DNA of 64,000 nt, taken from assembly GCA_041563955.1 (NCBI GenBank), contig JBFGQV010000001.1, positions 1,508-65,507 on the forward strand. The letters run 5' to 3'. Below, one piece after another: positions 1-63,439 of this stretch. The stretch comes from Alphaproteobacteria bacterium (GTDB taxonomy: Bacteria > Pseudomonadota > Alphaproteobacteria > UBA8366 > JADFVY01). The translations under genes were made by a program, and so were the position numbers. The notes under the pieces were generated by a model that had not been told where the DNA came from, made no database searches, and saw only the letters and a list, made by a program, of their open reading frames with translations. Position 1 is the first letter of the stretch. Each line of letters starts with the position of its first letter.

Positions 1-1628
1 GTCTCGTTGGTCGTATCGGCCTCCGCCACGGCGTTTGCGGCGATCCTGGCCGACTGCGCTACCTGGCGGCCGATCTCTGAGATCGACGCCGACAGTTCCT
101 CCGCCGTCGTCGCCACCGTCTGCACGTTCGCCGTGGCCTCGTCGGAGGCCGATGCCACCGTCGCCGACTGACGGCTGGTCTCTTCGGCCGTCGCCGACAT
201 TTGCTGCGCCGTCGCCTGCATCTCGGTTGCCGAGGACGAGACCGCCTCCAGGGAGTCCGTGGCCGTCCTGTCGAACTGTGCACAAAGACGGATTAAGCGC
301 TCCGCCTCCGCCTCCCGGGCCGAACGGTCGGACGCCTTTTCGGCCTCGAGTCGTTTGGTATCGAGCAGCGCCTTTCGGAACCCTTCGAGGGACGATCTGA
401 TCGCTTCGAATTCGCGCAAGCGGGTCGGCGGCATGGCAGCGTCCAGACGCCCCTGCTGCATGTCGTCGAGGGCCCGGCTGGCATGGCTGACAGGTTTGAG
501 CACCTGGCTACGCAGGAACAGGGCCACGACGAGCGCGAAGCCCACGAAGCCGAGGAGCATGACGATTCCGGTGGTGCGGATGGTGCCGGCGCGGCCCGCG
601 ATTGCATGTCCACCCTCGACCGTTTCACTCATTGCACGCGCGGCATCCGCCGACAGGCGATCGGTGACGGCGGACAGGATGCGCGCCGCGTCCTCGTTCA
701 ACGCCTTGATCTGCGCCTCCAGCCCCAGCTGTTCTCGGCGCATCGAGAACGCGTCCGACAGGCCCTCGAACTCCGCCACGAGTGCGGGGAGAAATTCGTT
801 GTCGCCGCCGGTTGGAAGCCGTCCGAGCAGCGGCTTCAGACGCTTGCCGAGGCCTTTGTAGCTGCGTTCCGGACCGTCGAGTCCCTCGATATCTGTAATC
901 GTCTGGGCCTTGCCCAAGTGGGCGGTCATGTCGCGCAACGTAATGAGAAGGGTCTGGATGGCGGCGCTCCGATTCGCGAGCCGCGTTATGTCCTCCTCAA
1001 GAAAATCCAGGCTCTGGGCCGAGGCGCTACCTATATCGGCAATTCCCTCAGCCAGTTCCACGGCCGATTCCTCGCTGATCGCCACAAGCGTATCGTCGAT
1101 CTGATCGATCGCCCGGCGGGCCGTGTCGACATGTTCCTGAATCCCAATGCCCAGCCCGTCTCTCTTGTCGCCGGCCTCGGCGATCGCGCGCACGATCTCC
1201 ATGACCCGCTCGAGCTCACGATCGTCGGTCCCCGCATTGCCGCCGGACAGGCTCGCGCCGAGATGTTCCACCTGATTGAGGGCTTTTGCCCGCTGGTCGA
1301 CATTATCGGCGGTCATGACGAGGATTGCGCGGTGGGCCAGGCGCTCGACCTGGAGAGCACGATCTTGCATGACCTGCGCGCGGCTGATCGTGACGGCGTT
1401 GGTCGCATCGGCCAGCGTCGCGATCCGGCTCAGATCCAAGGCAATATTGGCGCCGACACCGACCACCGCGATCAGGACGACGATGCCCATCGCTGCCAGA
1501 ACCGCGGACAGTCCGAAGGCGGCGCCGCCCGTCGTGAACACCGGGGACGTCCCGTCCGTCCCCATATCCCCTGTCGATTTGATGCTGTCGTCCATGCCTC
1601 TTGGTTCTTCGCATTCCTCTCCGGTCAT
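1..1628 (-). CDS. Methyl-accepting chemotaxis protein, paralog A (3' end runs off the window, C-terminus missing)
   Basis: Absent from the ORF track because there is no stop in the window. My reverse-strand translation from ATG 1628 (alternative ATG 1595) gives MTGEECEEPRGMDDSIK. It continues with TM1 (FGLSAVLAAMGIVVLIAVVGV), a ~300-aa helical region, TM2 (GIVMLLGFVGFALVVALFL), and a HAMP-like LKPVSHASRALDDMQQGRLD. MCP-type signalling heptads follow (SSATEMQATAQQMSATAEETS, AEELSASISEIGRQV). The + ORF 483..1793 is its antisense shadow. Confidence 0.85.
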   Translation of the reverse strand, partial: MTGEECEEPRGMDDSIKSTGDMGTDGTSPVFTTGGAAFGLSAVLAAMGIVVLIAVVGVGANIALDLSRIATLADATNAVTISRAQVMQDRALQVERLAHRAILVMTADNVDQRAKALNQVEHLGASLSGGNAGTDDRELERVMEIVRAIAEAGDKRDGLGIGIQEHVDTARRAIDQIDDTLVAISEESAVELAEGIADIGSASAQSLDFLEEDITRLANRSAAIQTLLITLRDMTAHLGKAQTITDIEGLDGPERSYKGLGKRLKPLLGRLPTGGDNEFLPALVAEFEGLSDAFSMRREQLGLEAQIKALNEDAARILSAVTDRLSADAARAMSETVEGGHAIAGRAGTIRTTGIVMLLGFVGFALVVALFLRSQVLKPVSHASRALDDMQQGRLDAAMPPTRLREFEAIRSSLEGFRKALLDTKRLEAEKASDRSAREAEAERLIRLCAQFDRTATDSLEAVSSSATEMQATAQQMSATAEETSRQSATVASASDEATANVQTVATTAEELSASISEIGRQVAQSARIAANAVAEADTTNE

Positions 1629-1680
1629 TCGCGCGGCGCCCCGATCCGGCTGTCGGCGCGCCGCGCGATGGTCCCGGAGC

Positions 1681-2559
1681 TTACGACCCCACTCTGGTGT
1701 TCAGGACGTACTTGCCCGATACGCTGTGGTCGCCGCCGGTCGTCCCATTGGCGACGGCGAACGAGATTTCGATCGTGCCGGCGGCCGGGATGACCGCATC
1801 GTCGGCATGACCGGTGTCGAGCCGGCGCGCCAGCTCCAGATACCAGCGGCCATTGCGCCACACGCCGCGCGCCTTGACATCGGCGACGCTGCCCTGCGCC
1901 GACATGTTGACCTTGTAGCGCGGCATCATCTCGTCCTGCTTGGTGTCGTATTTCATCGAGCTGTACAGCTTGTCGCCGCCGTCGCTGGACCGCTTCAGGT
2001 AGACCGTGTTGCCGTCCGGCCCGCGGAACCTCTCGCCTCTCTCGAAGGGCTGGGGCGACACGCGCCAGTTCTTGTCATGGGCGAGCCCGGCAGTGTTCGA
2101 ACGCTGCGACTTCCAGTACCAGACATCGGCGGTGAACTCGCTGCCGTCCAGCTTGTTGGCGGTGAACGGCCCGTCCATCGAAAACGACACCATGAAGCGG
2201 TCCTCGCCGATCTTCGTCTGCTTGTAGGACTGCGACGCCTCGTCCCAGCGATAGGGCTTGTGTAGCTTGCTCTCCTCCGGATCGTCCCAGACCGCGAGCA
2301 TGTAGAACATGTCGCCATGCACGGCGGTCCTGATCTCGACCGACGCGACACCGCCGCCCCTGCGGCCGACATCGCTCAACGGCACGGTCACGGACGCAAC
2401 GCCGGCCCAGTCGTCGATCTGGCCGTCCAGCGTGATCGGCGCCTTGAGCGCGGCCGCGCCGATCGTCGTCTCGGCCTGCGCCGGCAGCGACGCTGTGAAC
2501 GTCAAACCAAACGCACAGGCCAGTGCCATCGGTTTGGCAGTATTCTTTAACCGAATCAT
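1681..2559 (-). CDS. Secreted EB_dh/DOMON-like (ethylbenzene dehydrogenase gamma-type, putative haem-b-binding) protein, paralog A
   Basis: Part of ORF 1681..2574. ATG 2559 has GGAG 10 nt upstream; ATG 2574 has no SD. Signal peptide MIRLKNTAKPMALACAFGLTFTASLPAQA. Motifs: LDGQIDDW, VWDDPEESKLHKPYRW, ADVWYWKSQRS, GVWRNGRWYLELARRLDTGHADD, FAVANGTTGGDHSVS. Collinear with the paralogs at 54593 and 58003. Confidence 0.85.
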   Translation of the reverse strand: MIRLKNTAKPMALACAFGLTFTASLPAQAETTIGAAALKAPITLDGQIDDWAGVASVTVPLSDVGRRGGGVASVEIRTAVHGDMFYMLAVWDDPEESKLHKPYRWDEASQSYKQTKIGEDRFMVSFSMDGPFTANKLDGSEFTADVWYWKSQRSNTAGLAHDKNWRVSPQPFERGERFRGPDGNTVYLKRSSDGGDKLYSSMKYDTKQDEMMPRYKVNMSAQGSVADVKARGVWRNGRWYLELARRLDTGHADDAVIPAAGTIEISFAVANGTTGGDHSVSGKYVLNTRVGS

Positions 2560-2759
2560 TCGCTCATTCTCCATTGAAGGTTAAAACAAACATCACGCCC
2601 TTGCGGACACGACCGTCAGCCGTCGCGTCTATGGCTGTGATCCGAGCTGCTGGCGCGCGCCCCACGGCGAAACCGTCCGCGCAAATTTCGTGCCGAACGT
2701 CGTACGGCCGAGATGCTTTGCTCGATTTCTGCAATCTGCATGGCTGAAGATACCGTGGA

Positions 2760-48836: not shown

Positions 48837-50302
48837 CACAGCACCTCCTTGCTGAGGGTCGGCCGCGGCTCGCGGCGGCGGGTGTTGCCGTCGGACGAGC
48901 CGGATCTGCGGGCCATCCTGACCAACCCATCGAATGCGACACCGACGACGGCGAGGACGTCATACAGATGGACCAGCATCAGGCCGAGATGCCGCACCAC
49001 GCTGCCGATCACGCGCAGAAGGGCCGCCATGCCGCGCATGCCGGCTGCCGTCGCGGTCCCGAACACGCTGCGCCCGGTGTGGAAGAAGGTCTCCAGCGGG
49101 ATCGCGACCACCGCCAGCACGAAGGGCAGGAAGAAGCCCAGGCCCATTTGCGCCGCCGTGGTGATCCACCGGAACGAGGCGCTGGCTGCGGCGGTCGTTG
49201 CCTCGTCGCCGCGCAGGAAGGCGTTGGTCGCCTGCTCGTCCTGCACCAGAATCTCGCGCATCAGGGCGAGACCCGATTCGATGGACGCCAGGACGGTCAG
49301 CAGGAACAACAGGAACCAGGCCATTTTGATCCGGGTGGAATCCTTCAACGCGCCGATTACCGGGAACAGGTTGGTGATGCGCAGCGATTCCATCAGGAAC
49401 ACGCCGGTGAACACCTCCAGCAGGATGATGACCAAGGCGCCGACTTCCGACACCCGGAGCCCGCCGACGATGGCATTGCCGCCGACCATCTCGGCCATCG
49501 GCCGGGCGATCAGGCGGAAATTGATGCCGGCGCCGAACGCGGCGATGGTCAGCACCAGCGCCGAGATCATGAAATAGGTGAAGGCCGAGGTCGATAGCGC
49601 GCGTTGCGCCTGGTCGGTCTTCTTCAGAATCCCTTCGTACTCGGTCATGTGGCGGTCGATGACCTTGGACTTCTCGAGCAGCGCGGTGACGTTCTTGTCG
49701 CTCAGGCCCAGCGTCGTCTCAAGCTTGCGGACATGCGGCATCATGGATGTGAGGAATTTGTGCCGCGTCTGGGTCGCCTTGCGGTATTCGTCGGTGGCCG
49801 CGGCGTGCGCCTTGACCAGCGAGGAGTGGATGACCTCGAGGATCTTGGCCACCATCGGGTCGCCCTTGGAGTTGATGTTGGCGACCGCCTTGACCGCGTC
49901 GACCCAGCCCGGCGGCGACGGCGGCACGTCGGTGCTCTCCTGGTGGTCTTCCTCGATCTTGGTGATGCGCTCGCTGATCCGGCGGTACAGCGCCGGGGTA
50001 TCGGCAAGATCGCGCCGCACCGCGTTCTCGATGCGCTCGAACTCACGCTCGATGACGCGTTCCTTTTGTTCGCGGCCATGCGACAGCAGGACCTCGCGAT
50101 TGCGCAGTGCGAAGTTCTGCTCGGCGCGGCGGATCGACTGGGCGGCGATCCGGAAGCCGCGATAGATGGCCCGGGTCAGCGACAGGATCGCCATGTGCGC
50201 CGGCTGCCGCGCGAGATAGAGCAGCGCCGACAGCAGCACGAACCACAGGATGCCGGAAAGCAGCGGGTTCGGCAGGATTAGAAAGGCTTTTTCGAACGGC
50301 AT
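48836..50302 (-). CDS. Hypothetical membrane protein (N-terminal TM, ~200-aa coiled-coil-like region, C-terminal multi-TM block)
   Basis: ATG 50302 after AGGAG. 488 aa. Charged helical region (REQKERVIEREFERIENAVRRD...). At least 5 C-terminal TM helices. Family not recognised. Confidence 0.7.
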   Translation of the reverse strand: MPFEKAFLILPNPLLSGILWFVLLSALLYLARQPAHMAILSLTRAIYRGFRIAAQSIRRAEQNFALRNREVLLSHGREQKERVIEREFERIENAVRRDLADTPALYRRISERITKIEEDHQESTDVPPSPPGWVDAVKAVANINSKGDPMVAKILEVIHSSLVKAHAAATDEYRKATQTRHKFLTSMMPHVRKLETTLGLSDKNVTALLEKSKVIDRHMTEYEGILKKTDQAQRALSTSAFTYFMISALVLTIAAFGAGINFRLIARPMAEMVGGNAIVGGLRVSEVGALVIILLEVFTGVFLMESLRITNLFPVIGALKDSTRIKMAWFLLFLLTVLASIESGLALMREILVQDEQATNAFLRGDEATTAAASASFRWITTAAQMGLGFFLPFVLAVVAIPLETFFHTGRSVFGTATAAGMRGMAALLRVIGSVVRHLGLMLVHLYDVLAVVGVAFDGLVRMARRSGSSDGNTRRREPRPTLSKEVL

Positions 50303-50360
50303 GGATTTCTCCTTTCATGGCTCTAACCCGATCAGGGGGAGGCCAATTTGGGCAGTATCT

Positions 50361-50520
50361 TACAATTTTACCAAAATATTGTTCAAGTTAATGAAAAGTT
50401 AATTCACAAAAAATCACAATTCAGAAACTTTTCGTTAACCATAAAATCATATGTCTGTTAATAATAATTATTTATTCTCATGATGTGATCATTTCTTATA
50501 CTTAAAAAATTCTGTAGGAT
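50361..50520. promoter_or_regulatory. Extreme AT-rich divergent promoter island
   Basis: Hand count gives 35 G+C in 160 nt (~22%). Contains TTAA-tgaaaag-TTAA (50388..50402) and TCACAA repeated at 50404 and 50414. Also an ATGAT-gtg-ATCAT palindrome at 50480..50492. Confidence 0.5.
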
Positions 50521-50573
50521 TGCTTAACGCCATGCCCGAATTTTCCATTGTGTGCCGCTGGCGGCGGGTGGTC

Positions 50574-50601
50574 TTGCGCATGCCGTAGCGGCACCTATAA
50601 T
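50574..50601 (+). promoter_or_regulatory. Candidate sigma70-type promoter of purEK
   Basis: TTGCGC-N16-TATAAT, with the -10 element ending ~48 nt before the purE ATG. Confidence 0.4.
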
Positions 50602-50648
50602 GCGCGGCCTCTGTATCAGTGCTTCGCGTCAAAAATGAGGCCGGACAC

Positions 50649-51140
50649 ATGGCTGAGTCACCGCTCGTCGGCATCATCATGGGCAGCCAATCCGACTGGG
50701 AGACCATGCGCCACGCCGCGGAGACGCTGGCCGCGCTCGGCATCGCCCACGAAACGCGGATCGTCTCGGCCCACCGCACGCCGAAGCGCATGAGCGAATA
50801 TGCCGAAGGGGCCGCGGCGCGCGGCCTCAAGGTGATCATCGCCGGGGCCGGCGGCGCCGCGCATCTGCCGGGCATGGTGGCCTCGATGACGGCGCTGCCG
50901 GTGTTCGGCGTGCCGATCGAGAGCAAGGCGCTGAAAGGCCTGGACAGCTTGCTGTCGATCGTGCAGATGCCGGGCGGCGTGCCGGTCGGCACACTGGCGA
51001 TCGGCAAGGCCGGCGCCATCAACGCGGCGCTGCTGGCGGCCGCCGTCGTGGCGCTGCAGGACGAGGCCGCTTCGGCCGCGCTGGCGGAATGGCGGCGCAA
51101 CCAGACGGACTCCGTGGCTCAAGAGCCAAAGGATGAGTAA
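50649..51140 (+). CDS. purE: 5-(carboxyamino)imidazole ribonucleotide mutase
   Basis: ATG 50649 ([20 protein letters not shown]). [16 protein letters not shown] and VPVGTLAIG are canonical PurE motifs. Confidence 0.95.
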
Positions 51141-54592: not shown

Positions 54593-55462
54593 ATGCATAC
54601 GCTTTTTGGACAAAAACACTTGGTTTCAGCTGCCGTAATCCTCGGCTTCACGACCTTTACGGCAATTCCGGCCGCAGCGCAGACGAGCGTCCGGGCCACC
54701 AGCCTCGGCGCTGCGGTGCAGGTTGATGGCGATCCGTCCGACTGGGATGGCGTTCCTTCCTACAACATCGGTCTGACCGGGCGCGGTGGCGTCGATTCGG
54801 TCGAGATGCGTTTCGGCATCCGTGGCGATACCGTCTACGTGCTCGCAATTTGGGACGACCCCACCGAAAGCCGGTTGCACAAGCCGTATGAGTGGCGCGA
54901 GGAGTCGCAATCATACCGGCGCACCAATCGGCTCGAGGATCGTTTTGCAATGAATTTCCTGATGTCCGGCGAGTTCTCCAACAGCAAGCTGTCCGGCAAT
55001 GAATTCACCGCCGACGTCTGGCACTGGAAGGCCTCGCGTTCGGATCCGGCGGGTATTGCCCACGACAAGAGCTGGCGCGTCTCGCGCAGTGAGTTCCCGG
55101 GCGCCAAACCGTTCCAGACGGCAGACGGACAGACCGTCTATCTCGCCCGGCCCAGCGACGCCGGCGACCGCCTGTACCGGCCGATCAAGCATACCGAAAA
55201 GCAGGACGACGTGATGCCGCGCTACGAGGTCAACCTGTCGCCATCCGGCAGCGTCGCCGACATCCGCGCGAAGGGCGTCTGGCGCGACGGGCGCTGGTAT
55301 CTGGAGATGGCGCGCCGTCTCGACACCGGCCATGCGGACGACGTGGTGATCCCCGCCTCCGGCCGGATCCCGTTCGCGGTGGCCGCGTTCAACGACGTCG
55401 ACAGCGGGGACCACAGCGTCTCCGAGGTCCTTTACCTGCAGACCGGAAACTACGCCAATTGA
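54593..55462 (+). CDS. Secreted EB_dh/DOMON-like putative haem-b-binding protein, paralog B
   Basis: GAGGGA 8 nt upstream. Signal peptide ...FTAIPAAAQ. VDGDPSDW, IWDDPTESRLHKPYEW, ADVWHWKASRSDPAGIAHDKSWRVS, GVWRDGRWYLEMARRLDTGHADD, FAVAAFNDVDSGDHSVS. 289 aa, collinear with paralog C. Confidence 0.85.
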   Translation: MHTLFGQKHLVSAAVILGFTTFTAIPAAAQTSVRATSLGAAVQVDGDPSDWDGVPSYNIGLTGRGGVDSVEMRFGIRGDTVYVLAIWDDPTESRLHKPYEWREESQSYRRTNRLEDRFAMNFLMSGEFSNSKLSGNEFTADVWHWKASRSDPAGIAHDKSWRVSRSEFPGAKPFQTADGQTVYLARPSDAGDRLYRPIKHTEKQDDVMPRYEVNLSPSGSVADIRAKGVWRDGRWYLEMARRLDTGHADDVVIPASGRIPFAVAAFNDVDSGDHSVSEVLYLQTGNYAN

Positions 55463-55532
55463 CGCGGGACACGGCGCCGTGGCGGCCGTTGCATCGGGCG
55501 GCCGCCGCGGCAACGTGCGCCGGAGCACTGCG

Positions 55533-57677
55533 ATGACCGGAAAATCACCGACCGACACGACACCCGAACGGCTGCGAGAGGCTAAAACACTCAGTCTCAG
55601 CCGCACGCTGACGGTGTCTGCCAGCCTGCTGGTCGCCACCCTGGTCGTTGTCGGCATCATCGTCAGCAAGGAGCTGTTTTCCATCCGGGACGGTGCCGAG
55701 CTGACCCGCACAGTGACAATTCCCGAATCCGTCGAGCAGAATCGTCACGCGCTGATCGCCGAGCGGATGGGCCATCACGCCGACCAGGTGCGATATGCCC
55801 CCGAAGGGACCACGCGTATGCGCGCCCTGGAATCGGCGTTGGCGTTGAGCAACGAGCTGGCCGCCGGGCTGCACGACTACCAGCGTGCTTCGGTCCGGCG
55901 CGCGGCGTCGCTGATCCGCGAGGCGGCCGAGGCGGCAGAGGCCGCACAGACCGCCGGTGAACAGATTGCCAGCCTGCTGGTTGAGGCCGACAACCTGATC
56001 TCGGAAATCGACGAGACCGTGTCGGCGATCGTCGAGGACAGCGGATACCGTGCGGCGGAAATCATGGACGAGGCGTCACAGCAGCTGGAGGACGCCGAGG
56101 CGAGCCAGGTGCGCGCCAATATCGGGCGGATATTCGCCGACGTGCAGGACACGATGGAATTCAACACCTCGAGCCGCCAGCTGCTCGACGCATTGCGTGC
56201 GTTGCGCAATGTGCTGATCGAAGCCCGCAATATCGACAGCACGGTGGGCCTGGAGGCCGCAGAGACCCGGTTCAACGCGCTTTATCGCCGGCTGGAGGCG
56301 ATGATCAACAGCCTCCCGCAGGCGGGCGCCGGATCCAGTGACTTCGAGTACCTGCCGGACCAAATTGCCCAGTTCGACAAGTTCCGGTCGGTATTTGTCG
56401 TGCGCAGGGAGGCCATCGAGGCGCGCGGCAGGACCGACGCGAAGGCTGGCGACGCGCTCGCGATACTGACGGAACTGCAGGAGAACCTCTCGGCCGATGC
56501 GGCGGACAAGGCGATTTCCAGCGTCGGCGAAATCACCGCGAACACCGATCGCGTCATCGCCGTCAGCATCGCCATGATGGCGATCTTCGTGATCATCGCC
56601 ATCCTGTCCGGGTCGATCGGCCGCAAACAGGTGCTCAAACCGCTTGTGCTGGCGAGCGGCGCCCTGGACGGGTTGAGTCGCGGGGATCTGGATGTCGACA
56701 TCCCAGAGTCGCGGTTCGAGGAGTTCGCGTCGATCCGCGCATCGCTGCAGAGTTTCCGGGACGCGCTGGCGGACCGGGCGCGTCTCGAGAGCGAGCGTGC
56801 GACGCAGGAGCAGCGGGCCGAGGCGGAGAAGCGTCGGGTGCTGCTGGAGCTTGCGGAAGGGCTGGAGGGCAGTGTGCAGGCGGTGACCGCCGGGCTGTCG
56901 TCGGCGGCGACCGACATGGAGTCGGCGGCGGGACGGATGTCGACAACGGCCTCGCAGACCCGGGACCAGGCGTCGTCGGCGGCGGCGGCATCGACCCAGG
57001 CCAGCAACAGCGTGGAGGAGATGGCGGCGGCGGCGGAAGAGCTGTCGGCGTCGATCGAGGAGATTCTGCGCCAGGTGGGGCGGTCGACACAGATTGCCAA
57101 CCGGGCGGCGGACGAGGCGGGGCGGACCAACAGCACGGTTGCGGGCCTGGTGGACGCGGCGCAGGAGATCGGCGAGGTGGTTGATCTGATCAACGACATC
57201 GCCGGGCAGACGAACCTCCTTGCGCTGAACGCGACGATCGAGGCGGCGCGCGCCGGCGAGGCGGGCAAGGGTTTTGCGGTGGTGGCGCAGGAGGTCAAGA
57301 ACCTGGCCAACCAGACCGCCAAGGCGACCGAGGAGATCGGCCGGCGCATTGCCGCGATGCGCGAGATCACCGACGCGGCGGCGGGGACGATCCGCCAGAT
57401 CGGCGACACCATCGTGGAGATCAACGAGATCTCGACGACGGTGGCGTCGGCGATGGAAGAGCAGGGGGCGGCGACCAAGGAGATCGCGGGCACGGCTCTG
57501 GCGGTGACCGGCAGCGCCCGGTCCTCGACCGAGAGCATCGGGTCGGTGGCCAACGCCGCCGACGACGCCGGCGCCGCAGCCGGCCAGGTGCAGGGCGCGG
57601 CCAAGGCGCTGACCCGGCAGTCGCGCGAGCTTACGGCCGCTGTCGAGAGCTTCCTCGAGCGTATCCGCGCCGCCTGA
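55533..57677 (+). CDS. Methyl-accepting chemotaxis protein, paralog B
   Basis: ATG 55533 (GGAG 9 nt upstream; alternative GTG 55479). TM1 (LTVSASLLVATLVVVGIIV), ~300-aa helical periplasmic region, TM2 (VIAVSIAMMAIFVIIAILSG). HAMP (KPLVLASGALDGLSRGDLDVDIP) and MCP hairpin ([37 protein letters not shown]). Confidence 0.9.
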   Translation: MTGKSPTDTTPERLREAKTLSLSRTLTVSASLLVATLVVVGIIVSKELFSIRDGAELTRTVTIPESVEQNRHALIAERMGHHADQVRYAPEGTTRMRALESALALSNELAAGLHDYQRASVRRAASLIREAAEAAEAAQTAGEQIASLLVEADNLISEIDETVSAIVEDSGYRAAEIMDEASQQLEDAEASQVRANIGRIFADVQDTMEFNTSSRQLLDALRALRNVLIEARNIDSTVGLEAAETRFNALYRRLEAMINSLPQAGAGSSDFEYLPDQIAQFDKFRSVFVVRREAIEARGRTDAKAGDALAILTELQENLSADAADKAISSVGEITANTDRVIAVSIAMMAIFVIIAILSGSIGRKQVLKPLVLASGALDGLSRGDLDVDIPESRFEEFASIRASLQSFRDALADRARLESERATQEQRAEAEKRRVLLELAEGLEGSVQAVTAGLSSAATDMESAAGRMSTTASQTRDQASSAAAASTQASNSVEEMAAAAEELSASIEEILRQVGRSTQIANRAADEAGRTNSTVAGLVDAAQEIGEVVDLINDIAGQTNLLALNATIEAARAGEAGKGFAVVAQEVKNLANQTAKATEEIGRRIAAMREITDAAAGTIRQIGDTIVEINEISTTVASAMEEQGAATKEIAGTALAVTGSARSSTESIGSVANAADDAGAAAGQVQGAAKALTRQSRELTAAVESFLERIRAA
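56637..57677 (+). repeat. 1041-bp HAMP-to-stop segment, near-identical copy 1 (partner 59991..61031)
   Basis: Same length and no indels. About 5-7% mismatches in the stretches I compared by eye (for example 56701-56880 vs 60055-60234). Confidence 0.85.
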
Positions 57678-57798
57678 CATCCCAACAAACGCACGACCGT
57701 GACGGCAAAGGCGATGCCGGCGCTCCCGGCGAGGCCGCCTCTCCGGGCCGGTCTTTCCGGCGGTCGCCGGGCGGCGGCCGGTTCCTGCAATGCCGGGC

Positions 57799-57814
57799 TT
57801 AACAGCCTCTTAAC
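57799..57814. promoter_or_regulatory. Perfect CtrA-type box TTAA-N7-TTAAC upstream of cassette C
   Basis: TTAAcagcctcTTAAC, 204 nt upstream of ATG 58003. It is immediately followed by TTATCCACA (57816..57824), the DnaA-box consensus. Confidence 0.45.
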
Positions 57815-58002
57815 CTTATCCACATAGCATGCTCCCCGGGTAATGCGTGTAAGAGGGGATGATGCGTCGAGCGGCCGCCGTCGCGTTCCCTTGCGCCTGC
57901 GGTCGGCGTGGCGGGATTTCAAACCAATTCGCCGATTGGCTCTGTCCCTTCGTATCGTCCCCGCCCGTACACGGCCCGTGAATCTTTGGGAAAGGGGACG
58001 CC

Positions 58003-58872
58003 ATGTTCGATCATACCCTTTGCAGGCACGTTCTCACGACATCCGTCACCCTGGCGTTGTCCGCCGGGTCGGTGTTTCCTGCCGCGGCGCAGTCCGTGGT
58101 CGAGGCAGTCATGCTTCCGGCGCCGATCCAGGTGGACGGCGACCTCGGCGACTGGGCCGGGACCCCGTCACAGCGCATTGCGCTCACCGGCCGCGGCGGG
58201 GTCGATTTCGTGGAGGTGACGTTCGGAATCCACGACGATACGATCTACCTGCGGGCGGTCTGGGACGACGCGACCGAAAGCCGCTTGCACAAGCCGTATC
58301 GATGGGACGAGCAGACCCTGTCCTATCGCCGCACCCGCCAGCTGGAAGACCGTTTTGCGATTTCATTCGCAATGTCCGGCGAGTTCTCCAACAGCAAGCT
58401 GTCCGGCAATGAATTCACCGCCGACGTCTGGCATTGGAAGGCCTCGCGTTCGGACCCGGCGGGCATCGCTCACGACAAAAGCTGGCGCGTCTCGCGTAGC
58501 GAATTCCCGGGGGCGAAGAAGTTCACCAACCCCGAAGGTCAGGTCATCTACCTGGCCCGGCCGAGCGATGCCGGCGACCGCCTGTACCGGGCGGTCAAGC
58601 ACGAAACCCGGCACGAGGACCTGATGCCGCGCTACGAGGTCAACCTGTCGCCGAAAGGCAGCGTTGCAGACGTCCGCGCGAAGGGGGTCTGGCGCGACGG
58701 GCGCTGGTACCTCGAGATGGCGCGCAAGCTGGATACCGGCCACGAGGATGACGCCGTGATTCCCGCCGTCGGACGAATTCTCTTCGCGATTGCCGGCCAT
58801 AACGACGTCGACAACGAACGACACAGCGTGTCGGAAACGTTCGTCCTGCAGACCGGCGGGTACGGGAACTGA
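58003..58872 (+). CDS. Secreted EB_dh/DOMON-like putative haem-b-binding protein, paralog C
   Basis: AAGGGGA upstream. Signal peptide ...SAGSVFPAAAQ. 289 aa with no indels relative to paralog B (constant offset 3410 nt). A 49-aa block is identical (MSGEFSNSKLSGNEFTADVWHWKASRSDPAGIAHDKSWRVSRSEFPGAK). Confidence 0.85.
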   Translation: MFDHTLCRHVLTTSVTLALSAGSVFPAAAQSVVEAVMLPAPIQVDGDLGDWAGTPSQRIALTGRGGVDFVEVTFGIHDDTIYLRAVWDDATESRLHKPYRWDEQTLSYRRTRQLEDRFAISFAMSGEFSNSKLSGNEFTADVWHWKASRSDPAGIAHDKSWRVSRSEFPGAKKFTNPEGQVIYLARPSDAGDRLYRAVKHETRHEDLMPRYEVNLSPKGSVADVRAKGVWRDGRWYLEMARKLDTGHEDDAVIPAVGRILFAIAGHNDVDNERHSVSETFVLQTGGYGN

Positions 58873-58919
58873 CCCGAGGCGCGACGCGATGGCGGCGGAA
58901 ATGATAGGCGCCCGTCGGC

Positions 58920-61031
58920 GTGTCACGAAAAACCGATATGGGTGACCCATCGGTGCAGTCGCGGGCGCGGCGCGCGAGCCTGCGACGCACGCTCGTCGCG
59001 CTCGCCCTCGCCGTTTTTGCGGTCATGGGCGTCGTCGCCTTCATGATCGGCGCACGGCTCTTCGACATCGAGCAACTGGCGCGGGAGACGCAGACCGCGA
59101 CGATTCCGGATTCGGTCAGGCAGAACCGCCATGCGCTCGAGGCAGAGCAGCTGGCCCGGTACGCGGAACTCGTGCTGCGCGAGATAGATGACTCGGCGCG
59201 GGCCGAGGCCGCAGATGAAGCGCGGCGCCTCGCGGCCGGACTCGCGAATGATGTTGACGGCCCGCTCAGGATATCGGTCAAGGAAGCTGCGCGACTGATC
59301 GCGGAAACCGCGGCGGCCGCCGATGCGGCCAGCAAACGGTCGCAAGCGATCATGGCGCGGCTCGCCGATGCGGACAATATCATCGCGGAGATCGACGACA
59401 ACCTCGCGGTCATCGTCGACGACAGCAGCTACTGGATGCGCGAAACCCTTGGCGAATCCACGAACGGCGGCATCGACGAAAACGTGCGGCGTGAGATCGT
59501 CGACGCCTTGCGGATCAACACGGTCAGCCGCGAGCTTCTCACCAGCCTGCGGTCCGGCCGCGGCATCCTGATCACCGCTGCGACTATTGACAACGAAGCG
59601 GCGCTGGACGCCGCGGCGGAGCGGTTCAAGCTCATGAGCGACCGGCTGGTGATCCTGACGCAGCAACTGCCCCTCGCCGGCCTCGGCGCCAGTGACTACG
59701 AGTTCCTTCCGGACCTGATGGCCAGTTTCGCGGAATATGCGGACATCCTCGACTTGCGCCGCACCGTCATCGTCGAACACCGCCGTGCCGTCGAGGCCAA
59801 GGGGCGGGCGACCGCCGTGCTGGCCGACATTCGCGAGAGTCTGTCCGCCGACGCGGCGGCCAAGGCAAGCAGCAGCATCGGCATGATCGCCGAGGAGGCG
59901 GGCGCGATCATGTTTGTCGGAACCGCCATGCTGCTGTTCCTCGCGTGTCTGATGATGCTCGCCGGGGTGATCGGCCAGCGCGAGGCCGTGAAGCCCCTGG
60001 TCCTGGCGAGCGGCGCTTTGGACGGACTGAGTCGGGGCGATCTGAGTGTCGACATCCCGGAGTCGCGGTTCGAAGAGTTCGCGTCGATCCGGGCATCGCT
60101 GCAGAGTTTCCGGGACGCGCTGGCGGACCGGGCGCGTCTCGAGGGGGAGCGGGCGACACAGGAGCAGCGGGCCGAGGCGGAGAAGCGTCGGGTGCTGCTG
60201 GAGCTTGCGGAAGGGCTGGAGGGCAGCGTCCGGTCAGTGGCGTCGGGTCTGTCGTCGGCGGCGTCGGAGATGGAAGGGGCGGCGGAGCGGATGTCGGCGA
60301 CGGCGGCGCAGACCCGGGGCCAGGCGTCGGCAGCGGCGGCGGCATCGACCCAGGCCAGCAACAGTGTCGAGGAGATGGCGGCGGCGGCAGAGGAGCTGTC
60401 GGCGTCGATCGAGGAGATCCTGGGCCAGGTGGGGCGGTCGACGCAGATCGCCAACCGGGCGGCGGAAGAGGCGGGGCGGACCAACAGCACGGTCGCGGGC
60501 CTGGTGGACGCGGCGCAGGAGATCGGCGAGGTGGTCGAGCTGATTTCGGACATCGCCGGCCAGACCAACCTGCTGGCGCTGAACGCGACCATCGAGGCGG
60601 CGCGCGCCGGCGAGGCCGGCAAAGGCTTCGCGGTGGTTGCCCAGGAGGTCAAGAACCTCGCCAATCAGACGGCGAAGGCGACGGAGCAGATCGGCCGGCG
60701 CATTGCCGCGATGCGGGAGATCACGGACGCGGCGGCGGCGACGATCCGCCAGATCGGCGACACGATCGTCGAGATCAACGAGATTTCCACGACGGTGGCG
60801 TCGGCGATGGAGGAGCAGGGGGCGGCGACCAAGGAGATCGCCGGCACGGCGATGGCGGTGACCGGCAGCGCGCAGTCGGCGGCCGAGAGCATCGAGCTGG
60901 TGGCGAGCGCTGCCGACGACGCCGGCGCCGCGGCCGGCCAGGTGCAGGGCGCGGCCGAGGGGCTGACCCGGCAGTCGCTTGAGCTCAGGCAGGCGATCGA
61001 ACGCTTCCTCGAACGCATCCGCGCCGCCTGA
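58920..61031 (+). CDS. Methyl-accepting chemotaxis protein, paralog C
   Basis: GTG 58920 (alternative ATG 58938). Same TM1 / helical periplasmic domain / TM2 / HAMP / signalling layout as paralog B. The sensor region is divergent and the C-terminal 347 aa are nearly identical. Confidence 0.9.
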   Translation: MSRKTDMGDPSVQSRARRASLRRTLVALALAVFAVMGVVAFMIGARLFDIEQLARETQTATIPDSVRQNRHALEAEQLARYAELVLREIDDSARAEAADEARRLAAGLANDVDGPLRISVKEAARLIAETAAAADAASKRSQAIMARLADADNIIAEIDDNLAVIVDDSSYWMRETLGESTNGGIDENVRREIVDALRINTVSRELLTSLRSGRGILITAATIDNEAALDAAAERFKLMSDRLVILTQQLPLAGLGASDYEFLPDLMASFAEYADILDLRRTVIVEHRRAVEAKGRATAVLADIRESLSADAAAKASSSIGMIAEEAGAIMFVGTAMLLFLACLMMLAGVIGQREAVKPLVLASGALDGLSRGDLSVDIPESRFEEFASIRASLQSFRDALADRARLEGERATQEQRAEAEKRRVLLELAEGLEGSVRSVASGLSSAASEMEGAAERMSATAAQTRGQASAAAAASTQASNSVEEMAAAAEELSASIEEILGQVGRSTQIANRAAEEAGRTNSTVAGLVDAAQEIGEVVELISDIAGQTNLLALNATIEAARAGEAGKGFAVVAQEVKNLANQTAKATEQIGRRIAAMREITDAAAATIRQIGDTIVEINEISTTVASAMEEQGAATKEIAGTAMAVTGSAQSAAESIELVASAADDAGAAAGQVQGAAEGLTRQSLELRQAIERFLERIRAA
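59991..61031 (+). repeat. 1041-bp HAMP-to-stop segment, near-identical copy 2 (partner 56637..57677)
   Basis: See partner entry. Both end ...FLERIRAA-TGA. Confidence 0.85.
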
Positions 61032-61114
61032 TTACCCGCGATTCTGCAAGTCCGTGACCGACCGGGCCGGGCTGTGATATGACCGGCATCGGCTCGGATG
61101 CGGGAGGCGGGCGC

Positions 61115-63439
61115 ATGGCGACGGAATCACGGACACCGTTCAGGGGATCGGCGACCCATTGGGGCGCCTTCTCGCCTGAGGTGCGGGACAACCGGGTGGT
61201 CGGCGTGCGGCCGTTCGCCGGCGATGCCGACCCGTCGCCCATCCTGCGCTCGATACCGGACGCCCTGTACGATGCGAGCCGCATCGACCGGCCCTATGTG
61301 CGTGCGGGGTATCTCAAGAACGGCCCCGCCGGCGATCGGGACGGGCGTGGCGCGGAGCCATTCGTGCCGGTCGACTGGGAGGCCGCCCTCGATCTCGTGG
61401 CGGCGGAGGTGGCGCGGGTCCGCGACAGCCATGGCAACGCGGCCATCTTCGGCGGCTCCTATGGCTGGGCCAGTGCCGGCCGGCTGCATCACGCGCGCAC
61501 CCTGCTGCACCGCTTCCTCAACTGCGCCGGCGGCTTCACCGGGCAGGTGACGAATTATTCTTACGCCGCGGGCATGATCGTGATGCCGCACGTGGTCGGC
61601 ACGGTGCAGCCGGTCAGCGGGCCGGGCACCAGCTGGCCGAGCATCGTAGAGGCGACGCGCCTGATGGTCATGTTCGGCGGCGTGCCGCTGAAGAATACCC
61701 AGGTCGAATCCGGCGGCACGGGCGAACACACGGCGGCGGGCTGGCTGCGGCGCGCCCGCGAGGCCGGGGTCCGGTTCGTCTCGATCAGCCCGCTGCGCAG
61801 CGATGCGGCGGCGTTCCTGGACGCCGAATGGCTGGCGCCGCGGCCGGGGAGCGATACTGCAATCATGCTGGGCCTTGCCCATACGCTGGTCGCCGAGGGG
61901 CTGCCCGACGCGGCGTTCCTTAAGGGGTACACAACCGGATTCGACAGGTTCCGGGCGTATCTTCTGGGCGAAGCCGACGGCCAGCCCAAGGATGCGGAGT
62001 GGGGCGCCCGGCTGTCCGGCCTGGCGGCCGATGCGATCCGCGACCTTGCCCGGCGTATGGCCGCGACCCGCACCTTCATCACCTCGAGCTGGTCGTTGCA
62101 GCGCGCCGATCACGGCGAGCAGTCGTACTGGATGACCGTGGTGCTGGGCGCGCTGCTCGGCCAGATCGGCTTGCCGGGCGGCGGCTTCGGCTTCGGCTAC
62201 GGCGCGGTCAACGGCATGGGCAACCCGCGCCGCAACGCGCCGGTGCCCCGCATGCCGGCGGGGCCCAAGCCGGCCGGCATCGACATTCCGGTGGCGCGCA
62301 TCGCCGACATGCTGCTGCAGCCGGGCGCGACCATCGACTTCAACGGGCGGCGGGTCACCTATCCCGACATCCGGCTGGTCTACTGGGCCGGCGGCAATCC
62401 GTTCCACCACCACCAGGACCTCAACCGCCTGGTCGCGGCCTGGCGGCGGCCGGAGACGATCGTCGTGCACGAACCCTGGTGGACGGCGACGGCGCGCCAC
62501 GCCGATATCGTGCTGCCGGCGACCACGCCGCTGGAGCGCAACGACATCGCCGCCTCCTCGCTCGACCGCTTCGTGATCGCCATGCGTCGCGCCATCGACC
62601 CGGTCGCGGGGGCGCGCGACGATTTCCGCATCTTCGCAGATCTCGCGCAGCGCCTCGGGTTCGGCGCCGCATTCACCGAGGGGCGCGACGAAATGGGCTG
62701 GCTGCGGCACATCTACGACGTGGCGCGGCAACAGGCGGCCCATTTCGAACTCGACATGCCCGACTTCGACGCGTTCTGGGAGATCGGGTGGCATGAGTTC
62801 CCCGCCCCGGACCGTCCCTACGTGCTATTCGAGAAGTTCCGCCACGACCCGGCCGAGTCGCCGCTGCGGACGCCGTCCGGGCGCATCGAAATCTTCTCCC
62901 GGGCGATCGACTCGTTCGGCTACGACGACTGCCCGGGCCACCCGGTATGGCGCGCACCGGCGGAGTGGCTGGGCGCCGTCACGGCGCGGGACTATCCGCT
63001 GCACCTGATCTCCAACCAGCCAACAACGCGGCTGCACGGGCAGATGGACAACGGCCGCGTCAGCAGGGAGCAGAAGGTCTGCGGCCGCGAGCCGGTGTGG
63101 ATTCATCCCGACGACGCCGCCGCGCGGGGCATCGCGAACGGCGACGTCGTTCGCCTGTTCAATGAGCGGGGCGCTTGTCTCGCCGGCGCGAAAATCAGCG
63201 ATTCGGTCCGCCCGCGAGTCGTCGCCATTGCGACGGGCGCCTGGTACGACCCCGTCGAGCCCGGCCGCATCGGCACGCTCGACCGGCACGGCAATCCCAA
63301 CGTCCTGACGCGGGACGCCGGCACGTCGCGCCTGGCCCAGGGTCCGGTGGCCGGCAGCGCGCTCGTCGAGATCGAGCGCTGGGACGGCGCGGTGCCGGAC
63401 ATCACCGTCGGCGATGCGCCTGCGATAACGGATGCGTGA
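61115..63439 (+). CDS. bisC: Molybdopterin oxidoreductase, BisC/TorZ-type (biotin / methionine-S-sulfoxide reductase family), cytoplasmic
   Basis: ATG 61115 after GGGAGG. HWGAF, IFGGSYGWASAGRLHHARTLLHRF, VYWAGGNPFHHHQDLNRL, ADIVLPATTPLERNDI and SGRIEIFS parallel E. coli BisC along the whole length as I recall it. No twin-arginine signal. Confidence 0.9.
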   Translation: MATESRTPFRGSATHWGAFSPEVRDNRVVGVRPFAGDADPSPILRSIPDALYDASRIDRPYVRAGYLKNGPAGDRDGRGAEPFVPVDWEAALDLVAAEVARVRDSHGNAAIFGGSYGWASAGRLHHARTLLHRFLNCAGGFTGQVTNYSYAAGMIVMPHVVGTVQPVSGPGTSWPSIVEATRLMVMFGGVPLKNTQVESGGTGEHTAAGWLRRAREAGVRFVSISPLRSDAAAFLDAEWLAPRPGSDTAIMLGLAHTLVAEGLPDAAFLKGYTTGFDRFRAYLLGEADGQPKDAEWGARLSGLAADAIRDLARRMAATRTFITSSWSLQRADHGEQSYWMTVVLGALLGQIGLPGGGFGFGYGAVNGMGNPRRNAPVPRMPAGPKPAGIDIPVARIADMLLQPGATIDFNGRRVTYPDIRLVYWAGGNPFHHHQDLNRLVAAWRRPETIVVHEPWWTATARHADIVLPATTPLERNDIAASSLDRFVIAMRRAIDPVAGARDDFRIFADLAQRLGFGAAFTEGRDEMGWLRHIYDVARQQAAHFELDMPDFDAFWEIGWHEFPAPDRPYVLFEKFRHDPAESPLRTPSGRIEIFSRAIDSFGYDDCPGHPVWRAPAEWLGAVTARDYPLHLISNQPTTRLHGQMDNGRVSREQKVCGREPVWIHPDDAAARGIANGDVVRLFNERGACLAGAKISDSVRPRVVAIATGAWYDPVEPGRIGTLDRHGNPNVLTRDAGTSRLAQGPVAGSALVEIERWDGAVPDITVGDAPAITDA

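Follow-up and report, generated by a model that had tools for sequence, protein, structure and literature searches.

Mosaic similarity between two tandem EB_dh–chemoreceptor cassettes of an alphaproteobacterium and the probable concerted evolution of their signalling modules

The stretch of DNA analysed here, hereafter the window, comprises 64,000 nucleotides (nt) of contig JBFGQV010000001.1 from an alphaproteobacterium (assembly GCA_041563955.1). Its open reading frames (ORFs) and their Pfam matches delimit two tandem cassettes on the plus strand between 54.6 and 61.0 kb, each composed of an EB_dh gene followed by a gene for a methyl-accepting chemotaxis protein (MCP). Here, we report that the two cassettes resemble each other as a mosaic, in which the last 1041 nt of the MCP genes, encoding the output module of the receptor, are alike and group by genome, and in which the inputs, that is the EB_dh genes and the sensor-encoding parts of the MCP genes, are diverged and group with their orthologs in a related lineage. 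We consider it probable that an old tandem duplication gave rise to the pair and that its output module evolves in concert by gene conversion, with a contribution from purifying selection. The features of the pair are listed below; TM1 and TM2 are the two transmembrane (TM) helices, lengths of proteins are given in amino acids (aa), and the 3' modules of MCP1 and MCP2 are referred to as W1 and W2.

54593..55462, plus strand: EB_dh gene 1, 289 aa, with a signal-peptide-like N-terminus ending in PAAAQ; PF09459 at 75 bits against a cutoff of 33.3; its product is the putative periplasmic partner of MCP1
54962..55023, plus strand: 62-nt run identical to 58372-58433, in the most conserved part of EB_dh (MSGEFSNSKLSGNEFTADVWH)
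55533..57677, plus strand: MCP1, 714 aa from the ATG at 55533, in an open frame that reaches a GTG at 55479; PF00015 at 98.0 bits against 34.6
55533..56636, plus strand: input part of MCP1 (TM1, all-helical periplasmic sensor predicted to be TorS-like, TM2; sensor type 1), diverged from copy 2
56637..57677, plus strand: 3' module copy 1 (HAMP-like segment and MCPsignal), 1041 nt, the probable concertedly evolving tract
57678..58002: spacer between the cassettes, 325 nt; cassette homology stops at the stop codons
58003..58872, plus strand: EB_dh gene 2, 289 aa; PF09459 at 75 bits against 33.3
58920..61031, plus strand: MCP2, 703 aa from the GTG at 58920, with an alternative ATG at 58938; PF00015 at 96.1 bits against 34.6
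58920-59990, plus strand: input part of MCP2, sensor type 2
59991..61031, plus strand: 3' module copy 2, 1041 nt

Mosaic similarity of the two cassettes

A database protein of 714 aa (P0001) is 100% identical to MCP1. Two TM helices, recognised as the hydrophobic stretches LLVATLVVVGIIV and VIAVSIAMMAIFVIIAILSG, flank the periplasmic sensor, and long terminal helices are found at 11-88 and 274-382 in the AlphaFold2 (AF2) model of MCP1. The MCPsignal domain (PF00015) scores above the Pfam gathering threshold in both MCPs. A first-pass annotation of this DNA, made from the letters alone, had let the conserved segment start with a HAMP domain, and the match does begin at the TM2 junction and spans profile positions 4-52 of 53, but both HAMP profiles (PF00672 and PF18947) remain below threshold (E=0.02-0.03, 15 bits against cutoffs of 24-25 bits); HAMP is a plausible label for the segment that follows TM2. 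Outside the genes the alignment of the two units drops to ~20-36% identity, and the sequences 3' of the two stop codons are unrelated. A scan between the cassettes found no convincing promoter or terminator, and no Rfam matches were obtained across the whole window.

Both 3' modules begin at the K of KPLVLASG, end with the stop codon and are, just as first annotated, equal in length (1041 nt) and free of indels. Their mismatches had been put at a few percent and amount in fact to 115 of 1041 positions (11.0%; 89.0% nt identity), values of 3.6-6% being limited to three sub-patches (56706-56872, 56979-57181 and 57334-57517). At the protein level 34 of 346 residues differ, which corresponds to 90.2% identity. 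The sensor halves, judged by eye to align loosely with indels and to share about one third of their residues, indeed contain indels and are 38% identical in amino acids and 35-65% identical in nucleotides. The EB_dh proteins are 70.7% identical, somewhat below the earlier estimate of ~75%. Four-fold degenerate sites in codons with identical prefixes differ at 47 of 85 positions in the 5' part (55%) and at 47 of 194 in the 3' part (24%; Fisher p=1e-6), and the synonymous (dS) and nonsynonymous (dN) divergence between the cassettes is distributed as follows.

Sensor half: dS 1.07 or more (saturated), dN 0.64
3' module: dS 0.34, dN 0.054
EB_dh genes: dS 0.91, dN 0.21

Divergence is accordingly far from uniform along the genes, the 3' dS being about one third of the 5' dS, and the ratio of dN to dS (omega) in the 3' module is 0.16. 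The two copies are correctly resolved in the window and are no artefact of assembly, since 105 of the 115 differences between the paralogs recur in L110, an independently made assembly of this species that is 99.72% identical to the window over 11.7 kb. L110 belongs to the set of comparator loci, designated by L numbers, used throughout, all of which are metagenome-assembled genomes (MAGs) or metagenome contigs.

Orthologous inputs and outputs that group by genome

Species-representative genomes were scanned with an EB alignment, which yielded 25 alphaproteobacterial loci. At 24 of these the next gene after EB_dh encodes an MCP whose sensor is homologous, and the 25th is interrupted by a contig end. 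Most relatives carry a single cassette at the same site, in the order purEK, COQ9, def, rpsU, small ORF, EB, MCP, reductase and DUF3179, and this single cassette is of either type 1 or type 2. Its occurrence would fit loss by recombination between the repeated parts or, equally, lateral addition. A metagenome scan and the inspection of eight contigs revealed no further independent tandem pairs, the loci belonging to single-cassette relatives, to L110 or to the L002 lineage only.

The same tandem pair in the same cassette order as in the window is present in L002. When the two window copies and the two L002 copies are aligned as four taxa, informative sites are divided among groupings by genome, by ortholog and across (genome : ortholog : cross) as follows.

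Upstream spacer: 2 : 39 : 3
EB flanks: 9 : 44 : 6 and 8 : 32 : 5
Sensor: 11 : 233 : 11
3' module: 56 : 0 : 0

Because sensor and EB sites group by ortholog, the duplication preceded the separation of the window and L002 lineages and the inputs of the two genomes are orthologous. The 3' modules of L002 are 100% identical to each other over the 686 nt available, and this identity begins at the equivalent of window position 56633, only 4 nt off the junction named above. Neighbour-joining (NJ) trees separate the two histories in the same manner. The sensor tree consists of two old clades, type 1 with W1, L002-1, L001, L003 and L114 and type 2 with W2, L002-2, L005, L082 and L111, and the signalling tree contains the sister pairs (W1,W2) and (L002-1,L002-2).

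The inputs are well conserved between the two lineages. The input part of MCP1 is 73% identical to its L002 ortholog (omega 0.17) and EB_dh 2 is 83% identical to its own, and omega is 0.17-0.21 for orthologous sensors and 0.13 for the EB genes in the comparison of the window with L002. Since orthologous sensors and EB genes are conserved at such low omega, both inputs are functional and were differentiated long ago. The diversification of input surfaces that had been envisaged in the first-pass annotation is therefore not under way at present: the sensor types predate the sampled speciations, and purifying selection acts between orthologs. Its further suggestion, that the two cassettes sense different things through the same pathway, is a reasonable hypothesis.

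Three independent assemblies of the L002 lineage (L002, L081 and L123) end at or inside the 3' module. The L002 contig stops within copy 2, L081 is exactly one repeat period long, and L123 covers the unique segment between the modules and overlaps them by 29 nt and 27 nt. Exact repeats break de Bruijn assemblies in just this way, and the repeat of the L002 lineage is therefore considered real, bounded by the TM2/HAMP junction on one side and by the stop codon on the other. L081 was also considered as an independent full copy 2 and was rejected as such, since it starts and ends inside the repeat, which is the signature of a collapsed period. Further contig ends lie within the 3' module or tens of nt from its start in L001 (12417), L004 (11852) and L119 (3772), and would fit repeated signalling modules that break those assemblies too. 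The L002 contig (CAYFYY010000023.1) is labelled 'uncultured Flavobacteriales' and is syntenic with alphaproteobacterial (Rhodospirillales-like) MAGs at 70-88% aa identity; the label is probably a binning or labelling error.

Within the window lineage, dS between W1 and W2 (0.34) is lower than dS between the window modules and L002 (0.45-0.50), and this relation, with 0.45 for W1 and 0.45 for W2 against L002, holds in 962 of 1000 codon bootstraps. Rooted quartets with five outgroups, all of them single-cassette loci (L005, L003, L082, L114 and L117/L118), contain 22-32 sites in favour of (W1,W2), while each alternative grouping has 8-14. A binomial test, applied to three of the outgroups (L005, L003 and L082), gave p=5e-5 to 0.01. 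Comparison of the window with L110 adds a weak hint of ongoing conversion, as 3 of 10 single nucleotide polymorphisms (SNPs) in the modules shift a copy to the state of its paralog. Along the module, synonymous divergence between W1 and W2 alternates between low and high values.

56637-56705: dS 1.11, dN 0.04
56706-56872: dS 0.11, 3.6% mismatches, the youngest-looking tract in the window
56873-56978: dS 0.55, dN 0.19
56979-57181: dS 0.17
57182-57333: dS 0.75
57334-57517: dS 0.22
57518-57677: dS 0.35, dN 0.14

Synonymous differences are overdispersed along the module at a scale of 10-20 codons (p=0.003-0.02), and the longest concordant run of polymorphic sites, 32 sites at 56806-56870, is significant in a Sawyer-type test (p=0.0034). 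The longest run of nt-identical codons in the 3' module, 22 codons, was not significant (p=0.09), nor was a runs test of which window copy matches L002 at the sites that vary between W1 and W2 (z=-0.79). In the first 69 nt (56637-56705) the amino acid identity derives from constraint and not from conversion, as dS is saturated there (1.1) at a dN of 0.04. The identity of the L002 copies puts the 5' limit of the tract at 56633-56637, and in the window the synonymous sites put it at ~56706; at its 3' side the tract extends to the stop codon. The description of the modules as homogenised in the first-pass annotation holds for L002 (100% over 686 nt) but not for the window, where the tracts are old and patchy (dS 0.11-1.1); judged from these patches, conversion in the window lineage would be intermittent, partial and mostly old.

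A shorter stretch of the same kind may be present within the EB_dh genes. The perfect identity of the 62-nt run at 54962-55023 with 58372-58433, first seen by eye, was confirmed exactly. The run consists of 20 identical codons, a length that exceeds the expectation from shuffling synonymous identity over the aa-identical codons (p=0.002). In the four-way alignment with L002, 6 of its sites group by genome and none by ortholog, and the genome : ortholog : cross counts for 54941-55080 are 7:5:0 against 17:76:11 in the EB flanks. The run is probably a short conversion tract.

A third cassette lies at the start of the window.

1..2574, minus strand: third EB_dh+MCP cassette, with the EB3 ORF at 2574..1681 and MCP3 from ~1574, cut by the start of the window

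By tblastn, its EB protein is 51-54% identical in amino acids to those of the tandem pair, and the first 165 aa of its signalling module are 44% identical. The genome thus harbours at least three EB_dh-MCP cassettes, and the tandem two alone have been kept alike.

Gene conversion and its alternatives

In the scenario we propose, the EB_dh-MCP unit was duplicated before the window and L002 lineages split. The inputs (secreted EB_dh together with TM1, the TorS-like sensor and TM2) would since have evolved independently, as two orthologous lineages under purifying selection. In the last 1041 nt, encoding the HAMP-like segment and the signalling domain, one copy would occasionally be overwritten by the other, and the mechanism we infer is non-reciprocal homologous recombination of the RecA type, with tracts restricted to the region of sufficient nt homology between the TM2/HAMP junction and the stop codon. 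Because conversion needs homology, and homology ends at the junction and at the stop codon, the tract boundary would be self-reinforcing. The last event in the L002 lineage would be very recent, leaving at least 686 nt identical, and the window lineage would retain a patchwork of older tracts, three patches with dS of 0.11-0.22 being set among stretches with 0.35-1.1. Purifying selection (omega 0.16) would add to the amino acid similarity and would be its sole cause in the first 69 nt. With identical outputs, both receptors may feed one signalling array.

Gene conversion and strong constraint on the output module had both been named in the first-pass annotation as fitting the pattern. Comparison with orthologous loci now lends gene conversion positive support beyond mere compatibility, as L002 and the relatives show the 3' module to evolve in concert in two lineages. 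The loci L111 and L082, described below, add an exchange of ~800 nt of the signalling domain in another lineage. Constraint is also borne out, both by the omega of 0.16 and by amino acids conserved at saturated dS in the first 69 nt. Constraint as the only cause is another matter. If the modules were as old as the sensors and had stayed similar through strong purifying and codon selection with no recombination, the low omega, the conserved start of the module at saturated dS, the lower between-species dS in the module than in the sensors and the higher GC content at third codon positions (GC3) of the module would all be accounted for. Yet selection at the protein level is unable to bring about the agreement of the L002 copies at all synonymous sites over 686 nt, and it explains neither the grouping of the quartets by genome nor the position of patches with dS 0.11 beside patches with 0.55-1.1. 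Family constraint alone does not give 90% identity either, as the third cassette of this genome shows, whose identity over the same region is just 44%. The identity in L002 largely refutes constraint as a sole cause, and we regard it as highly improbable.

The signalling module, in whole or in part, could also have been acquired from another MCP paralog or strain without mutual conversion between the tandem copies. Exchange of this kind does occur in the family. The loci L111 and L082 are 85-95% identical in nt across EB_dh, sensor and reductase and 56-74% identical over ~800 nt of the signalling domain (L082:5400-6200 against L111:6861-7661), a low-identity stretch that begins ~190 nt after the TM2/HAMP junction; in this single-cassette lineage a distant version has independently taken the place of that part of the output module. 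The status of W2 as an outlier to both W1 and L002 in 57141-57332 would be expected from such a donor as well, and the 10 SNPs within 177 nt of the adjacent reductase gene that separate two strains speak for recombination imports at this locus. However, the 64-kb window contains no third near-identical module, its other MCPs being 37-44% identical, and the exact boundaries shared by the copies are the homology limits of the two tandem copies themselves, so that a third donor seems unlikely. Collapse or cross-threading of the copies by metagenome assemblers is the least credible explanation. It would be in keeping with the metagenomic origin of all sequences, with the termination of L002, L081 and L123 in the repeat and with the resemblance of L081 to one collapsed repeat period, but the window copies differ at 115 sites of which 105 are reproduced by L110, and collapse requires sequence that is truly near-identical, the three broken assemblies arguing that the repeat of the L002 lineage is real.

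Several observations weigh against concerted evolution by gene conversion, which we nevertheless prefer. The 56:0:0 count results from the L002 copies being identical and is by itself no proof for the window lineage, the second L002 copy ends early at a contig end, and all comparators are of MAG or metagenome origin. The dS margin within the window lineage is modest, and the bootstrap 95% interval of the dS difference just includes 0. A patch of ~190 nt, 57141-57332, supports a different grouping: dS is 0.52 between W1 and W2, 0.26 between W1 and the L002 module (A) and 0.60 between W2 and A, such that W1 and L002 belong together and W2 stands apart, and the quartets in this patch prefer W1+A for four outgroups and are tied for the fifth, L005. 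The patch may have remained unconverted since the split or may be of other origin. Also, dS and dN were estimated by the Nei-Gojobori method and not by a likelihood codon model. Finally, dS between the window and L002 is itself lower in the 3' module (0.45-0.50) than in the orthologous sensors and EB genes (0.68-0.97), and part of the contrast between 3' and 5' parts must therefore reflect a lower synonymous rate or a plateau in the GC3-rich module. With a synonymous rate or plateau that is intrinsically lower in the module, the fair test is a comparison within the module.

GC3 is 0.90-0.91 in the 3' module (0.89-0.91 when the genome background is included) and 0.77-0.85 in the EB_dh genes and sensor halves (54593-56636 and 58003-59990); set against the module value of 0.90, the range is also given as 0.80-0.84. 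The same contrast is seen in single-copy relatives, and weaker codon selection or a different origin may lie behind it. GC-biased conversion was considered as its cause and rejected, since the GC3 of the module equals the genome background (Moly 0.89, purK 0.91) and the low GC3 of EB and sensor occurs in single-copy lineages too.

Partner protein, sensor and relation to known systems

Directly 3' of cassette 2 lies a gene that may bear on the function of the pair.

61079..63439, plus strand: BisC-family molybdopterin S/N-oxide reductase; TIGR00509 at 1035 bits against a cutoff of 1017.55

The BisC-family model (TIGR00509) is the best match of this protein and TorA is the next best model. The reductase gene is likewise found directly 3' of the cassette or cassettes in L003, L005, L009, L082, L110, L111, L114, L117 and L118. 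In the window, 10 of the 33 SNPs relative to L110 cluster in 177 nt of this gene (61797-61973), a pattern that could stem from the import of a short stretch by recombination or from a mixture of strains within one MAG.

The periplasmic domain of MCP1 has no match in Pfam even at E up to 10, and phmmer detected no sequence-level match to TorS among PDB sequences. The AF2 model of the sensor (pLDDT 83) is an all-helical stacked bundle, and Foldseek matches it to the TorS-TorT complex 3o1i (E=3e-7, TM(target) 0.76; 3o1i, 3o1h and 3o1j at E=3e-7 to 1e-6), with PilJ and McpS as the next fold matches in the PDB. From these models the sensor is predicted to be TorS-like in fold. The AF2 model of EB_dh 1 (pLDDT 80.7) matches the heme-b subunits EbdC (2ivf_C, E=8.5e-9) and NxrC (7b04_C, 1e-7). 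The EB_dh proteins fail the gamma-subunit model TIGR03477 (22-25 bits against a cutoff of 169.85), and their neighbour is an MCP and not the type II alpha and beta subunits. Residues M124, K146, M208 and H274 are invariant or near-invariant in the EB_dh family, the alignments to EbdC and NxrC being too short for heme ligands to be mapped. EB_dh and sensor co-diverge as a unit.

A secreted partner, a TorS-like sensor and an S/N-oxide reductase are thus encoded side by side, which by analogy with the TMAO-sensing system TorT-TorS-TorA would suggest indirect, partner-mediated sensing. Tentatively, and with more doubt than confidence, the cassettes might be seen as a new indirect chemoreceptor in which a secreted protein of EB_dh fold, possibly heme-binding, docks on a TorS-like MCP, as TorT does on TorS, and reports an S/N-oxide or redox cue linked to the BisC-family reductase; partner and sensor would then co-diverge as matched inputs and conversion would keep the outputs interchangeable in one array. 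The TorT-TorS-TorA system shares with the window the TorS-like sensor fold, a neighbouring gene for a secreted partner and an adjacent S/N-oxide reductase of the DMSO-reductase family. It differs in that TorS has a histidine kinase output where the window has an MCP signalling domain, and in that TorT is of the periplasmic binding protein type where the partner in the window resembles the beta-sandwich of EB_dh and heme-b subunits. In the literature searched, neither concerted evolution of MCP signalling domains nor a link between EB_dh and chemotaxis was explicitly described.

Concerted evolution of bacterial duplicates by RecA-dependent gene conversion is well known, for example from tufA and tufB. 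The window pair has in common with these that paralogs which predate speciation are closer within a genome than orthologs are between genomes, and that low dS occurs in discrete tracts. Unlike tufA and tufB, the tandem MCP genes would convert one module while the other module and the partner gene escape, giving a single ORF a chimeric history. Neighbouring or paralogous MCPs with conserved cytoplasmic and diverged periplasmic domains are found in tar-tap of E. coli and pctABC of Pseudomonas, where the pattern is usually explained by differential constraint; here, in contrast, the grouping of outputs by genome in two lineages is evidence for recombination.

The closest likeness is to the group A Tlps of Campylobacter jejuni and C. 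coli (Tlp2, Tlp3, Tlp4 and relatives), which have identical or near-identical C-terminal signalling halves and ~30% identical sensors (PMC9769880, PMC6433261). Trees of sensor and signalling parts disagree in these receptors, and recombination of the 3' DNA has been documented or inferred, including Tlp-bounded invertible elements (PMC9769880, PMC6433261). The pattern of like signalling halves and unlike sensors is the same as in the window. The Campylobacter Tlps are dispersed, however, with dCache sensors and no EB_dh partner, whereas the window pair is tandem, with sensors that are helical and TorS-like and an EB_dh partner, and the Campylobacter modules are essentially identical whereas those of the window are 11% diverged and patchy.

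Gene conversion in gene families being already known, the present case is an ordinary but well supported one. What it adds is a tandem arrangement with an orthologous pair as control, a boundary at nt level and an association between EB_dh and a TorS-like MCP that had not been described before. It offers a clean natural example of a receptor in which one module evolves in concert while the other module and a partner gene diverge, and it illustrates a way of adding inputs to a chemotaxis array without the risk of incompatible outputs. Since output module and input evolve separately, trees of whole MCP genes mix two histories. Near-identical 3' modules of MCPs also break metagenome assemblies at predictable points, as seen in three contigs. 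This association, which is conserved, offers a concrete lead to an unstudied sensory cassette, EB_dh plus TorS-like MCP, of marine and sediment Alphaproteobacteria.

At some distance from the cassettes, the GC content of the window dips sharply at 50200-50650, to 0.39-0.41 against ~0.70. This region, which separates the gene for a 488-aa membrane protein on the minus strand from purE, was set aside as a notable feature, as it is an ordinary AT-rich divergent intergenic region whose arrangement is kept in relatives.

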